From contig DJCV01000012.1 of NCBI GenBank assembly GCA_002430735.1, positions 1,390 through 65,389 on the forward strand: a DNA stretch of 64,000 nt, written 5' to 3'. The notes beneath the pieces are model-generated. The model did not search any database. It saw only the letters and a program-made list of their open reading frames with translations, and was not told where the DNA came from. The position numbers and the translations under genes are program-made. This stretch comes from Candidatus Woesebacteria bacterium UBA5941 (GTDB lineage Bacteria; Patescibacteriota; Microgenomatia; UBA8517). Below, one piece after another: positions 11,033-61,851 of the stretch (position 1 is its first letter; every line of letters begins with the position of its first letter).

Positions 11033-13444
11033 ATGAAAATCTTTTACGTTCCGCTCGCGCTTCTATCCGCCATTATCGTAGCGACGCTTTTTAATAATTT
11101 CTTGCTTGCTGAAAAGATAGCACCACTTTTTTGGTTGTCGTTCAGTGCCTCTCTCATTAGTTCACTGCTTTACGAAATGCGCAGTGAACTAATGCAGTCG
11201 TTTAACACGTACTCACTATTTGTATTGAAAAAGCTTGATATAATACTCTCCAAAACGCGTGCTTTATTTATTGCTTGTGGCATCATTGCACTGCTCTATG
11301 GATTTACCACCACTAAATTCATGGGAGGAGATGACACTCGAGTTTATTTCGAATATCCCTTTGAATATTTTACGAATTTTTCTTCTCATGTTGCAAGTAA
11401 CAATGCATTCAGCGGACTTATTGGCTTCTTACCACCTCCATCAATTAGCCCGTTTGTATTAATGCTTTCAGGCGTCAAGACAATACTTCCGTTTCTTAAT
11501 TTGCAGGCCGTGTATTTCGTTGGAAATATCACGTTTGGATTTTTCTTCTTCTTTCAACTGTTACTTCAACTCTTTCCGAAGAAGAGCGAATATCAGAATG
11601 TTGTCTTTGCCATTTGTTCGCTCCTCTATGTATTTTCGCAATTTAATATCTATACGCTTTACTCATCACAGACACTCGGGATGTTTGTCGTGAGTGTCTT
11701 ACCTTGCTCACTGTATTTATTTTCTCGTTCAATCAGAGAGCGAAAACTTTCCTTTTTGATTATTATCGCGCTTCTATTAACGCTTTTTAGCGTATTTGCT
11801 GTTGGACTACCGTGGTTTGCCGGGTCTGTACTCGTATTACTGCCAATCGCGATTTATATTTCTTTCTTTAATGTGAAGCGAAGCGTCTTTTATTTCACCA
11901 TTCTGTGCATATTGCTCGCTCTCTTTAATGCAAACTGGTTGGCATTTGTAACACATTCACCAGTTGTTCAAAACACGGTTGGTGTTCAAAGTAGTTTATC
12001 TTCAACGACGTTCAGAGAAATGAATGAGGTAGGTATTCGTTCAACGGCGGCTCACAACAATCCGTTATATGCGGTGTTAAACATTTTCCCAAAAGGACTG
12101 CAGACCGCATTTAATTGGCCATATCTTTCTGTGTATCGTGATTGGTATTCGAATATTCTTTTGGTAAATGGATTTTTTGTTGGAATCTTTGTCTCTGGGT
12201 TAGTTATTGCTTATAAAAAACGAAGAGAGAGAGTCGTGTATCTGGTAACGCTCGTATCGTTCTTAGTAGGATTGTATTTATTTATTGTAAATTTCGGTTC
12301 AATAGGTGTCGACTTATTTATACTTCTTACAGAACGCATTCCAGGGTTTGTAATGTTTCGAAATATGTACGACAAATTCGCACTTGGATTTTCTTTAGCA
12401 TATTCACTACTTCTTGCATCGAGTTTTTATATTGTCATGCAATCTAAGATATCCGACGTTGCTAAGAGAGTAGTTGTAGCACTGTTCTTTTTTGTAATGG
12501 TTCTCAACTTAAAACCAGTTCTCTTTAATGACTTTAGTCGAATTCCACTTTGGACAACTGAGGCATCATACGGAACGATTAAAGCGTTTAATAGCGATTT
12601 TGAATTACTGCTTCAGTACATGAAGTCGCATCCAACGGATGCACGATATCTGCTTGCACCACTTGCCAGTGGAAATATTTTCCCAATTGAGGATCGCTTC
12701 AATAGAAATAATTATTACGTTGGTGTCTCTCCTCTTTTCCTACTGACTGGTCAAAATGATTATTCGGGGATATTAAGTTTTGGTGCCTTAGGGGAAGAAG
12801 TGCGTACGTATCTACGAGAACGAGAATATGAAAAACTGCGCGGGTTTTTTAAAGAAATGAATGTAGGGTATATTATCAAAAACAATAGTGTTTCACCTGA
12901 TATTCAAAGAAGCTATATTTATTCTGATAATTTAATTGAGGACCAAGACAGTGAATTCTTTGACGAAATACTTGGTTCTAAGATTGCGGACTTTGGCAGC
13001 AGATATTCGTTGTACTCAGTGAAGGATGACTACATTCCACAAAAGGTATTTATTGCTGATAACCCTGGGGCAAATGTTACTTACGAAAAGACTGGCGACT
13101 ACCATTATGTAGTGCACATCACTAATGCGAAAGTAGATGATGTACTTGCATTCCTTGAGCCGCTCAGCGGGGATTGGATACTTGAATCAGTGTCAGGGAT
13201 TCCAATTACATCTGCAGCTACTGTCGTTTACAACGGATATGCAAATAGCTGGAAACTTACAGATACCTTGCTGTCACAGCTCCCACAAAGTGATGTAACC
13301 CGTGAGGGAGACGATGTTATTCAAGCCACCTTGTCACTATCGTATGTCCCACAGAAAATGTATACCCCTACCTTCTACCTATCATATGGAGCAATGATCG
13401 TTGCAGTGATCCTCTTAATAGTCTTACTATTACGAAATGAGTAA
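11033..13444 (+). CDS. Large polytopic membrane protein, putative GT-C-fold glycosyltransferase (paralog 3 of 4)
   Basis: 803 aa; ERIPGFVMFRNMYDKFALGF motif, C-terminal NGYANSW. Confidence 0.6.
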   Translation: MKIFYVPLALLSAIIVATLFNNFLLAEKIAPLFWLSFSASLISSLLYEMRSELMQSFNTYSLFVLKKLDIILSKTRALFIACGIIALLYGFTTTKFMGGDDTRVYFEYPFEYFTNFSSHVASNNAFSGLIGFLPPPSISPFVLMLSGVKTILPFLNLQAVYFVGNITFGFFFFFQLLLQLFPKKSEYQNVVFAICSLLYVFSQFNIYTLYSSQTLGMFVVSVLPCSLYLFSRSIRERKLSFLIIIALLLTLFSVFAVGLPWFAGSVLVLLPIAIYISFFNVKRSVFYFTILCILLALFNANWLAFVTHSPVVQNTVGVQSSLSSTTFREMNEVGIRSTAAHNNPLYAVLNIFPKGLQTAFNWPYLSVYRDWYSNILLVNGFFVGIFVSGLVIAYKKRRERVVYLVTLVSFLVGLYLFIVNFGSIGVDLFILLTERIPGFVMFRNMYDKFALGFSLAYSLLLASSFYIVMQSKISDVAKRVVVALFFFVMVLNLKPVLFNDFSRIPLWTTEASYGTIKAFNSDFELLLQYMKSHPTDARYLLAPLASGNIFPIEDRFNRNNYYVGVSPLFLLTGQNDYSGILSFGALGEEVRTYLREREYEKLRGFFKEMNVGYIIKNNSVSPDIQRSYIYSDNLIEDQDSEFFDEILGSKIADFGSRYSLYSVKDDYIPQKVFIADNPGANVTYEKTGDYHYVVHITNAKVDDVLAFLEPLSGDWILESVSGIPITSAATVVYNGYANSWKLTDTLLSQLPQSDVTREGDDVIQATLSLSYVPQKMYTPTFYLSYGAMIVAVILLIVLLLRNE

Positions 13445-42565: not shown

Positions 42566-42590
42566 GACCGGGGTATAAGCCCGGCTTTTG
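42566..42590. terminator. Short GC hairpin with flanking T-tracts (bidirectional intrinsic terminator candidate)
   Basis: CCGGG(42568-72) gtataag CCCGG(42580-84) followed by CTTTT; reverse complement followed by TCTTTTT. Confidence 0.4.
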
Positions 42591-42602
42591 CCACGATTTA
42601 CT

Positions 42603-42826
42603 CTATGGCAATAATATGTGTGCGGCGAGATTTACCGCCTCTTCAATATCTGTAGACTTCCACAGCTTAAACGGAGCGGCTTCTCGAACAAACAAATGAT
42701 TGTGAACATTGTTCGGCTCCATTAATAGAATTACCGGAGTTCTAGCTTCATATGCCCAGGCTAATTCAAAACATGTACCAAATATACCATTGGACGATGA
42801 ATGAGTCTCAGTGGTTGTGTCTCCAC
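42603..42826 (-). pseudogene. Gene remnant with nucleoside 2-deoxyribosyltransferase-like C-terminal motif, frameshifted/N-terminally truncated
   Basis: Minus strand has AGGAGG-N7-GTG then a 21-codon frame ending in TAG; the +1 frame continues a protein-like sequence ...NGIFGTCFELAWAYEARTPVILLMEPNN...AVNLAAHILLP (resembles DSGTxFELGxAxAxGKPVI of the Nuc_deoxyrib_tr fold) with no start codon. Confidence 0.3.
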
Positions 42827-42922
42827 AGTGTATCCTCCTTACATTATCGATACAGGGTTATACCTGAGGCGCGCGCAGTTTTCATAACCTCAAAGCCTGT
42901 AAGAAATACGTAAGATTTCCCC

Positions 42923-42951
42923 TTGACGTGTCCGTGAAAACACGTCAAAAT
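42923..42951 (+). promoter_or_regulatory. Candidate mraZ promoter (TTGACG-17-CAAAAT) overlapping a palindrome TTGACGTGT-N8-ACACGTCAA
   Basis: -35 TTGACG 42923-42928; weak -10 CAAAAT 42946-42951; perfect 9-bp inverted repeat 42923-42931/42940-42948. Confidence 0.35.
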
Positions 42952-42976
42952 GGTGAAGATTGGTGACAAATGGTGA
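42951..42976 (+). promoter_or_regulatory. Three direct repeats TGGTGA with exact 10-bp period immediately upstream of mraZ (MraZ-box-like operator)
   Basis: TGGTGAagatTGGTGAcaaaTGGTGA at 42951, 42961, 42971; MraZ proteins are known to bind triple direct repeats at 10-bp periodicity in their own promoter. Confidence 0.55.
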
Positions 42977-42979
42977 AAT

Positions 42980-43411
42980 ATGCTCTTAGGAAACTATTCA
43001 ACGAACTTAAGTCAGGGGAAGCGATTAGCAATTCCCAAGAAATTTCGGTCTCAACTGGGAGACTCATGTATTGTGGCCAAATGGTACGACAAATGTCTGG
43101 TAGTTCTCTCACCCGACAATTGGTCTGAACTTTTACAACGGTTAACAGTTACTGATTCTGTTCCAACAGCAGCAGTTCGAGACACGATGCGATTCGTAAT
43201 GGGATCAGCATATGAGGTTTCACCTGATGCTCAAGGAAGAGTGGTACTTCCTGATAGTTTATTAAATTATGCAGGGATTACTGGGGAAGTGGTCTTTTTA
43301 GGATTGGGTTCACGAGTTGAGGTTTGGGATAAGAAAGAATGGGAAACAAAGGAAAGCTTTATTGGTGAGAATGCCGCTGCCCTATTAGAACAGATGGCAG
43401 ATGGAAAATAA
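42980..43411 (+). CDS. mraZ: Transcriptional regulator MraZ
   Basis: MLLGNYSTNLSQGKRLAIPKKFR matches MraZ N-terminus (MFxGxxxxxLDxKGRxxIPxxFR); second half-domain present; first gene of dcw cluster. Confidence 0.85.
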   Translation: MLLGNYSTNLSQGKRLAIPKKFRSQLGDSCIVAKWYDKCLVVLSPDNWSELLQRLTVTDSVPTAAVRDTMRFVMGSAYEVSPDAQGRVVLPDSLLNYAGITGEVVFLGLGSRVEVWDKKEWETKESFIGENAAALLEQMADGK

Positions 43412-44249
43412 TTACACGCACATTCCAGTTTTACTTGAAGAGACGATTCACGAACTAAATGTTATTGAAGGTGGACGATACATCGACGGCACATTGGGTG
43501 CTGGCGGTCATTCTGAAGCCATTTTGAAAAAAGGAGGATTAGTTTTGGGAATCGAAGCTGACGAAACTATGCTCAAAATCGCGGAGGAGCGTCTATCCGT
43601 TTACTGTCCTACGCTTGTCCGAGGGAATTTTGGGTCAATGGAATTAATTGCAACTGCCCAGCAATTAATTCCAGTTGATGGTGTCGTTCTTGATTTAGGA
43701 ATTTCTAACTATCATTACGACACGCTTGAGCGGGGATTCAGCTTTAAAAGACCAAACCAACCCCTTGATTTACGGCTTTCGACTGAGCAAGGAGTTACCG
43801 GGAGCACTCTATTAAACATATTGTCTGAAGAGCAGTTAAGAGAGTTATTTGAACCCATCATTGGGAATCAAAAGGCTCGGACAATTGTAAGACGAGTTGT
43901 TGAACGGCGATTAACAAAGCCATTTCAAACAGTAGGTGATCTATCAAATATCGCGGGAAGCCTGAGTCCTGAGACATTCCTGGCACTACGGATCGCCGTT
44001 AATACCGAATTCGTTGTATTAGAAAAAGGAATAGTAGGAGCGGTGAACATTTTGAAGAGCAAAGGAAGACTCGCAATCATTTCCTTTCATTCATTAGAAG
44101 ATAAAATCGTTAGTCGTTTGTTCAAGAAACTAGAACGAGATGGAATAGTACGACAATTGCAAAAAAGCCCTATTATCCCAAGCGAGAAAGAAATAGAGCT
44201 GAATGCAAAAAGCAGATCAGCATTATTAAGAAGTATTGAAAAAATTTAA
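43401..44249 (+). CDS. rsmH: 16S rRNA (cytosine1402-N4)-methyltransferase RsmH
   Basis: HIPVLLEETIHEL...YIDGTLGAGGHSEAIL signature; position after mraZ. Confidence 0.85.
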   Translation: MENNYTHIPVLLEETIHELNVIEGGRYIDGTLGAGGHSEAILKKGGLVLGIEADETMLKIAEERLSVYCPTLVRGNFGSMELIATAQQLIPVDGVVLDLGISNYHYDTLERGFSFKRPNQPLDLRLSTEQGVTGSTLLNILSEEQLRELFEPIIGNQKARTIVRRVVERRLTKPFQTVGDLSNIAGSLSPETFLALRIAVNTEFVVLEKGIVGAVNILKSKGRLAIISFHSLEDKIVSRLFKKLERDGIVRQLQKSPIIPSEKEIELNAKSRSALLRSIEKI

Positions 44250-61284: not shown

Positions 61285-61851
61285 ACTCGTTACACATTAA
61301 CGAGCTTGATGCGTCCCGCTCTGTGGGATGCCTGCTTGAAAGACAATTTGCGTTTTTACCTAGCGAGCACTGTGTTTAAGTACACACCACTTGCGGGACG
61401 CTATCATTTTGCTCATTACACAATCATTCGTTGTGGCAACCTAAAAGGATATACCTTTTTGTATCTTTCTAGTTTGCCATTCAACACGGTCATCCGTTAA
61501 TCTGGTCCCCCTCAGGGACCCCCACCAGATTATCCGGAACCCTGAAAACTCATCCTTTAGCGCTGAGGTGTAGGCTACCATGGATGGATGAGTGAGACTT
61601 GATACCGCGGCGATGGATCATACCAGTGCACAATGTGTACGTATGGGGTCCGTCTAGGTGCGGGCGGTATTCCCAGAGCACTGGTACTAGTCTCATGTTG
61701 ATGGCGGGCCCACGTTGGATGGGAGTAGCGTAAGCGACCCTGCTCCCAAACACGGGGTGTTCTTTTAAATAGGTCCAAGGAGGTGACTCATTGGACAATG
61801 AATATTAAAAGGGGTGAAGCGTTAAAAACTTCACCCCTTATTTACCCTTTT
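61285..61851 (+). ncRNA. Candidate structured non-coding RNA of about 560 nt with GC-rich 3' half, ending at intrinsic terminator
   Basis: Follows promoter; 5' hairpin CTCGTTA-cacat-TAACGAG; long-range perfect 9-bp pairing GCGTCCCGC (61311) with GCGGGACGC (61394); 61501-61680 is 55-57% GC by hand count against a visibly AT-rich background; ends at hairpin GGGGTGAAG-N9-CTTCACCCC plus TTATTT; no convincing ORF. Confidence 0.4.
61811..61851 (+). terminator. Intrinsic terminator (9-bp GC-rich stem plus interrupted T-tract)
   Basis: GGGGTGAAG 61811-61819, loop cgttaaaaa, CTTCACCCC 61829-61837, then TTATTTACCCTTTT. Confidence 0.55.

Follow-up and report, generated by a model that had tools for sequence, protein, structure and literature searches.

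The 64-kb stretch of DNA analysed here (the window, to whose positions all coordinates refer), from an uncultured, ultra-small member of the Candidatus Woesebacteria, contains the head of a cluster of genes for cell division and the cell wall (dcw), and directly in front of its first gene, mraZ, lie three hexamer repeats at 10-bp steps. The mraZ coding sequence (42980..43411, + strand) encodes a protein of 143 aa in which two stretches are matched by PF02381 (tandem SpoVT/AbrB-like domains, E = 8e-24) and which aligns over its full length to the solved structures 1N0E (E = 9e-16) and 9QLR (E = 2e-14), with each alignment spanning residues 1-140 or more. Its N-terminus, MLLG, aligns residue for residue with the MraZ proteins of Mycoplasma genitalium and M. 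pneumoniae, and an earlier start of the open reading frame (ORF) is excluded because a TGA stop lies in frame upstream of the ATG, at 42974-76. The next gene, rsmH (mraW; 43401..44249, +; PF01795, E = 4.5e-71), starts within the end of mraZ, and the gene order of mraZ, rsmH, an ftsL-like gene, ftsI and ddl is that of the head of the dcw cluster. The closest MraZ homologues, as well as all 80 related genome loci used for comparison, belong to the Woesebacteria/Microgenomates and thus to the Candidate Phyla Radiation (CPR, Patescibacteria).

The repeats are exact copies of TGGTGA at 42951-56, 42961-66 and 42971-76, and the last of them is separated from the mraZ ATG (42980) by 3 nt. With the preceding base included, they read ATGGTGA (box 1, 42950..42956), TTGGTGA (box 2, 42960..42966; clade consensus GTGGTGA) and ATGGTGA (box 3, 42970..42976), all on the + strand, and the sequence of the locus, which also includes a palindrome discussed below, is ...cccTTGACGTGTccgtgaaaACACGTCAAaaTGGTGAagatTGGTGAcaaaTGGTGAaatATG.... 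Tandem Repeats Finder reports the array at 42947-42982 with a period of 10, 3.6 copies and the consensus AAAATGGTGA, such that the start codon of mraZ sits in a partial fourth period, AATATGC. A preliminary description of this DNA had placed the three repeats, the palindrome and the 3-nt gap at the same positions, all of which proved exact when checked against the sequence. The triple TGGTGA-N4 occurs once in the 64 kb when both strands are counted, where shuffled sequences predict 0.06 occurrences, and the array at mraZ is also the sole match in the window to the looser pattern TGG-N7-TGG-N7-TGG. A lone TGGTGA is not scarce, with 43 copies seen versus 32 expected.

A promoter scan near mraZ yields a single promoter-like site, TTGACG-17-CAAAAT at 42923-42951, which agrees with the clade-wide consensus. 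The -35 hexamer TTGACG (42923..42928, +) corresponds to TTGACA in the clade, where TTGAC is nearly invariant, while the -10 hexamer CAAAAT (42946..42951, +) corresponds to NANAAT in the clade alignment and to CATAAT, a better -10, in close relatives. One T is shared by the -10, as its last base, and by the TGG core of box 1, as its first; box 1 overlaps the discriminator region together with the end of the -10. From this geometry, the transcription start is predicted 6-8 nt past the -10, at 42957..42959 (+). Transcription would therefore begin at about 42958, between boxes 1 and 2, and produce a leader of ~22 nt that contains boxes 2 and 3, with translation expected to begin at the ATG at 42980. 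Both the predicted -10 and the predicted start site, as given by the match to the promoter consensus, are overlapped by the array.

The regions upstream of mraZ were aligned for 80 GTDB loci from the Microgenomates/Woesebacteria; with four further relatives, the set comprises 84 loci, 80 of which can be anchored on TTGAC, and a metagenome scan with the MraZ protein as the single query contributed one extra locus. The pattern TGG-N7-TGG-N7-YGG is found within 200 nt upstream of mraZ in 71/80 loci. When TTGAC is the sole anchor and the boxes are not forced into register (77 loci), the consensus reads TTGACA....cgTgAAAA.ataTcAaAATGGT..a.AgTGGTGAaAAgTGGtgaa, and the distance from TTGAC to the TGG of box 1 is 28 nt in 78/80 anchored loci, whereas the spacing between box 1 and the ATG varies over 28-176 nt. 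Being fixed relative to the -35 and variable relative to the ATG, the boxes follow the position of the promoter, not that of the start codon. The layout shared by ~80 loci is thus TTGACA, a 17-bp spacer, NANAAT and three TGG-core boxes at 10-bp steps. It is also specific to this position, as 73 of the 78 triple-TGG patterns in 833 kb of the relatives' loci (both strands counted) lie just upstream of mraZ. The preliminary description had read the triple repeat as the MraZ operator and had suggested looking for it upstream of mraZ in related genomes; it is conserved there in 71 to 77 of the 80 GTDB loci and in every further relative with a recovered promoter region, and the fixed spacing to the -35, together with the concentration of the pattern at mraZ, strongly supports that reading.

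The degree of conservation is best seen in five relatives with 71-80% MraZ identity, in which third codon positions are only 47-55% identical to those of the window. The 34-nt segment reaching from the -10 to the ATG has 97% identity to the window in four of these relatives and 91% in the fifth, while over the 60 nt upstream of the -35, the same five are only ~30-38% identical. Judged by these alignments, the 34 nt from the -10 to the ATG are under strong purifying selection.

The boxes of the window differ from the clade consensus in the base before the core. The base preceding TGG is A, T and A in boxes 1, 2 and 3, respectively, while the clade consensus for boxes 2 and 3 is GTGG; the full clade consensus, AAAGTGGTGA, includes the GTGG[A/T]G box of Bacillus subtilis as well as the AAAGTG(G/T) box of the Mollicutes. 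The "lineage-specific box sequence" of the preliminary description therefore holds only in part: the TGG core and the 10-bp period are those of the canonical GTG(G/T) and GTGG[A/T]G boxes, while the leading G has been lost along with Lys13 of the protein. Where M. genitalium MraZ has D11-N12-K13-N14-R15 and the Escherichia coli protein likewise has D-S-K-G-R, the MraZ of the window has S11-Q12-G13-K14-R15. R15 is retained and the second DXXXR motif is intact (D83-AQG-R87), with Arg15, Asp83 and Arg87 aligning to R15, D82 and R86 of M. genitalium, but D11 is replaced by S and K13 by G. In the cryo-electron microscopy (cryo-EM) structure of the M. genitalium complex, Lys13 is close enough to the first T of the box for a hydrogen bond and in one box can also reach the preceding G (PMC12957436).

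Residue 13 and the leading G vary together across the clade loci. Among loci with Lys or Arg at residue 13, a G precedes TGG in both boxes 2 and 3 in 37, in one of them in 8 and in neither in 0; where residue 13 is any other amino acid, the corresponding counts are 4, 3 and 29. When the tree is collapsed to maximal clades that are uniform for residue 13, most boxes have the G in 19/23 Lys/Arg groups versus 2/14 of the others (Fisher p = 8e-5), a test in which phylogeny is corrected just roughly, as the tree is a neighbour-joining tree of a short protein. On the sequences compared, this co-variation is independent support for direct recognition of the boxes by MraZ and for the GTGG register. 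By its position, number of boxes, period, conservation and cognate protein, the array of the window is a member of the known kind of MraZ operator, with Gly13 paired with A/T-TGG boxes as a small variant feature.

Taken together, these observations make it very probable that MraZ controls the dcw operon through an operator formed by the three boxes, which is set within the core promoter and would serve negative autoregulation. With TGG cores every 10 bp, the boxes would face one side of the helix, and adjacent subunits of an MraZ oligomer would set their beta-sheet "cradle" (Arg15, Arg87) into successive major grooves. The operator spans about -8 to +19 relative to the predicted start, with boxes 2 and 3 covering roughly +3 to +19, and would thus lie inside the footprint of RNA polymerase; bound MraZ would cover the -10, the start site and the early transcribed region and exclude the polymerase. 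The expected outcome is negative autoregulation, by promoter occlusion, of mraZ-rsmH-ftsL-ftsI and the genes downstream. The anatomy of the locus, its conservation and the family of the protein are established from the sequences; binding and repression are predicted here, as are the start site and a ribosome-binding role of box 3, and we infer negative autoregulation because the operator lies inside the promoter and because of parallels in E. coli, M. genitalium and B. subtilis.

Across diverse bacteria, the MraZ operator usually consists of three GTG(G/T) boxes six nucleotides apart (PMC12957436). In E. coli, the Pmra sequence, which we read directly, is TTGACA-17-GTAAAC followed by GTGGG three times at 10-bp steps; its three MraZ boxes were described by Eraso et al. 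2014, as reported in PMC8475190 and PMC12957436. The window shares with it the TTGACA-type -35, the 17-bp spacer, the -10 and three TGG-containing boxes at 10-bp steps. The E. coli boxes, however, are GTGGG and start 8 nt past the -10, whereas those of the window are A/T-TGGTGA and the first of them overlaps the -10, and box 3 of E. coli is followed by a 19-nt stretch with a strong Shine-Dalgarno sequence where box 3 of the window ends 3 nt before the ATG. In B. subtilis, GTGG[A/T]G occurs three times with 4-nt spacers, the repeats are required for repression, and the triple repeat is found only upstream of the mra operon (bioRxiv 10.1101/2022.02.09.479790). The format of a 6-mer and a 4-nt spacer is the same as in the window, and of the two box forms known from B. 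subtilis, one is the Microgenomates consensus GTGGTG(A); the window differs in having A or T for the leading G in all three boxes and in its first DXXXR motif, which is SQGKR and not D..K.R. M. genitalium has four boxes, AAAGTGT-N3 three times and AAAGTGG, which are needed for repression and one of which contains the mapped start (PMC12957436). It resembles the window in the A-rich 5' flank and (G)TG(G/T) core, the 10-bp period, the start inside a box (a predicted start in the window) and the conserved equivalents of Arg15 and Arg86, and its fourth box matches the Microgenomates consensus AAAGTGG-TGA. Against its four boxes, the window has three clear ones and a possible degenerate fourth period, AATATGC, and the equivalent of Lys13 is Gly.

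Several observations weigh against this interpretation or limit its reach. The window boxes, ATGG, TTGG and ATGG, retain TGG without the G that opens the canonical GTG(G/T), the protein's first DXXXR motif is degenerate (S11, G13), and the K13A substitution, at the position where the window has Gly13, abolishes binding in M. genitalium (PMC12957436); for these reasons, the affinity or binding mode of MraZ at the window boxes may differ. The co-variation that speaks for direct recognition carries the rough phylogenetic correction noted above. Repression is predicted from box position only, and MraZ is reported to act as an activator in M. gallisepticum, as cited in PMC12957436. Finally, the spacers between the boxes are ~100% conserved in the subclade as well, and constraints besides MraZ contacts must therefore act on the 34 nt, for example promoter clearance or translation initiation.

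The finding bears on the age of the circuit. The MraZ autoregulatory design of a -35, a -10 and three 10-bp-phased TGG boxes appears intact in the CPR/Microgenomates, which would mean that it predates the split of the CPR from other bacteria; within the literature searched, no paper on MraZ in CPR bacteria was found. The co-variation of residue 13 with the leading G provides an inexpensive natural test of the recognition code that was put forward on the basis of the 2026 cryo-EM structure. Furthermore, the -10, start site, operator and translation start would be packed into 34 nt, which may account for the near-invariance of this segment against near-saturated synonymous sites. Beyond the ancient circuit, the recognition-code test and the packed 34 nt, the array is an expected feature in an ancient and ordinary arrangement.

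The promoter also carries the perfect palindrome TTGACGTGT-N8-ACACGTCAA (42923..42948), with 9-bp arms at 42923-31 (left) and 42940-48 (right), which the preliminary description took to suggest a second, dimeric regulator. Such an operator would cover the -35 and spacer of the mraZ promoter, and there is some basis for it: the inverted repeat is perfect, lies over the -35, occurs as a single copy in the window and has the potential to form a stable hairpin or cruciform, folding as single-stranded DNA at -8.3 kcal/mol (z = -4.3). The right arm differs from that of close relatives by four substitutions (CTATTCAT to CACGTCAA), each of which raises the complementarity, and the palindrome is found only in the lineage with a divergent deoxyribosyltransferase gene upstream. 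The wider comparison does not bear the claim out, however. The palindrome is confined to this species; its right arm, ACACGTCAA, occurs only in the window, in the identical contigs L082 and L083 and in the strain variant L084, where the MraZ protein is identical but a mismatch in the left arm leaves 8/9 pairs. It was not found in any of the eight related lineages examined (L001/L086, L088, L002, L081, L085, L090, L091 and L093), which have ACTATTCAT, ACTAATCAT or similar sequences at this position together with CATAAT, and the palindrome is absent from relatives at 65-80% MraZ identity. Moreover, 4/9 of the pairs (TTGA/TCAA) are already given by the -35, which is conserved in the clade, and by the likewise conserved TCAA in front of the -10, such that only ~5 are truly extra. 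Perfect 9-bp inverted repeats with 3-20 nt loops give 19 hits in the window (~10 distinct sites) versus 7.4 +/- 3.7 in Markov simulations, so that ~7 such hits per window would arise by chance, and a second copy of the palindrome was not found in the 64 kb. Because of this chance background and the single copy, we regard a second dimeric regulator as unlikely, and from its sequence context, the palindrome looks incidental. Operators of the CIRCE/HrcA type are 9-bp inverted repeats with a 9-nt spacer, and the palindrome resembles them in having 9-bp arms 8-9 nt apart over a promoter. Its sequence is unrelated (TTAGCACTC in CIRCE versus TTGACGTGT), and it is neither conserved in relatives nor present in further copies in the window.

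The short distance between box 3 and the ATG had also suggested an mRNA with essentially no 5' untranslated region. The abutment itself is real and is common to the subclade and a few other lineages, where it represents the shortest end of the range of leader lengths, and a leaderless message, or one with a leader of <=3 nt starting at or just before the ATG at 42980, would fit both the 3-nt gap and the lack of an obvious Shine-Dalgarno sequence in neighbouring genes, which makes unconventional initiation plausible here. The promoter argues otherwise, as no -10/-35 match lies at a distance that fits a start at 42980, and the sole nearby site ends at 42951, 28 nt before the ATG. Its geometry is also fixed in ~80 relatives with leaders of up to ~170 nt, in which the start must fall between boxes 1 and 2. 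What the conserved promoter predicts is instead the ~22-nt leader described above, and a leaderless mraZ mRNA is accordingly improbable from the sequence.

Alternatively, the repeats might work mainly in RNA, as three GGUGA elements that act as Shine-Dalgarno-like or ribosome standby sites instead of as a DNA operator. The UCACC of a standard 16S 3' end is the complement of GGUGA, box 3 lies at a workable distance from the AUG, and conservation extends to the spacers between boxes. Nevertheless, the boxes keep their distance to the -35 while that to the ATG varies (28-176 nt) in relatives, box 1 overlaps the -10 and is probably untranscribed, TGG and not GGTGA is the best conserved part of the boxes, and their leading base co-varies with residue 13 of a DNA-binding protein. 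A primary function in RNA is thus very improbable. The notion that the array, which Tandem Repeats Finder does report as having a period of 10, is a functionless tandem duplication from replication slippage is effectively refuted by its maintenance across a superphylum-level clade at saturated synonymous divergence.

Box 3 may also have a role in translation. As a weak Shine-Dalgarno sequence, its GGUGA could possibly base-pair with UCACC at the 3' end of a standard 16S rRNA, and GGTGAA(A/T)(A/T)ATG is retained in all short-leader relatives; because the neighbouring genes are without Shine-Dalgarno sequences, we consider this role no more than possible. At seven called starts inspected, which around mraZ include 40399, 41813, 43401, 44251, 44534 and 46267, no obvious Shine-Dalgarno sequence was found, unlike the perfect AAGGAGG of the pseudogene upstream of mraZ. 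A Shine-Dalgarno heuristic applied to 51 long ORFs was biased by the choice of start codons and is uninformative. The ATGG reading of the boxes also creates ATG codons upstream of mraZ, which relatives with GTGG boxes do not have. The ATG at 42970 in box 3 opens an out-of-frame ORF of 52 codons (42970-43128, +) that overlaps the mraZ start and begins within the predicted leader, while that at 42950 in box 1 opens a mini-ORF of 8 codons (42950-42976, +) that is probably untranscribed.

One further element of the promoter, missed in the preliminary description, is conserved in the clade. GTGAAAA (42934..42940, +) lies in the spacer of the promoter, in the loop of the palindrome of the window, and GTGAAA is present in the spacer of 72/80 anchored loci with high information content. 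It is identical to the 3' half of the box unit (GGTGAAAA), but at 16 or 19 bp from box 1, it does not fall into phase with the array; an in-phase fourth box, which would require 20 bp, was therefore rejected. Loci that have lost GTGAAA show a weak tendency towards an incomplete third box (p = 0.04, uncorrected). We tentatively suggest, as a possibility that we hold to be rather doubtful as a whole, that the loss of Lys13 in MraZ co-evolved repeatedly and independently within the Microgenomates with loss of the leading G, such that the window would represent a natural specificity variant of an ancient regulator, and that GTGAAAA might be either where a second input acts on dcw transcription or a fourth contact of MraZ that is off-phase. 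Many distant relatives (e.g., L026, L027, L040 and L046) have a semi-conserved TTCGGGT ~39-45 nt upstream of box 1, just 5' of the -35, which is absent from the window.

Relatives with long leaders show a motif of their own. CTGCC[CT](A) is found 11-25 nt (mode 17) before the mraZ ATG in 48/63 long-leader Microgenomates loci, such as L034 (about 2479-2484), L043, L058, L060 and L070 (mraZ ATG at 2501), and is absent from 42951-42979 of the window. Within 417 kb, 44 of the 106 plus-strand copies of CTGCCC lie within 60 nt before mraZ, compared with 0/68 on the minus strand. The motif often occupies the loop of a small hairpin with co-varying stems, the mean stem being 3.35 bp versus 2.29 +/- 0.13 with permuted flanks, a value that 0/2000 permutations reach. 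As CYGCCCR, it resembles the site around C1402 of 16S rRNA that is methylated by RsmH, the product of the next gene in the operon, although any connection is speculation. Rfam searches of the locus, the whole window and 12 relatives returned nothing credible, and the leader motif was likewise without a match. Nor did TGGGCAG, as a pairing partner for CTGCCCA, show a clear positional cluster in the operons of relatives with the motif. In the window, mraZ has a CTGCCC near its 3' end, 24 nt ahead of the rsmH ATG, one that relatives do not conserve.

Divergent to mraZ lies the remnant of a nucleoside 2-deoxyribosyltransferase gene (42603..42826, - strand), identified by alignment to an intact gene of 159 aa in L084 and containing stop codons in its translation. 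Relative to the L084 gene, the pseudogene has a 253-bp internal deletion and a frameshift, and it retains an AAGGAGG Shine-Dalgarno sequence and a GTG start at 42826. The deoxyribosyltransferase gene is lacking in L086, L088 and L090 (76-78% MraZ identity), in which the orthologue of a 249-aa ORF of the window precedes mraZ with only ~130 bp between them. Between the 249-aa ORF and the pseudogene, the window has a G+C-rich hairpin (42567-42585, AAAAAGACCGGGGTATAAGCCCGGCTTTTG) with A/T runs on both flanks, which has the look of a bidirectional terminator and would shield the mraZ promoter from upstream read-through. The MraZ protein of L084 is 100% identical to that of the window though 17% of third codon positions differ, and the pseudogene region flanking mraZ has just ~72% identity between the two, a pattern that indicates either that purifying selection on MraZ is very strong or that the locus has undergone recombination. 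Within the rsmH coding sequence, we observe a 13-bp perfect inverted repeat, TGGAATTAATTGC-N9-GCAATTAATTCCA (43639-43673), which is the longest perfect hairpin of the window. Long perfect inverted repeats are also present at 61809-61839 and 11156-11193, one of which is AAGGGGTGAAG-N9-CTTCACCCCTT, while the other has 13-bp perfect arms beginning ATTAGTTCACTGC.

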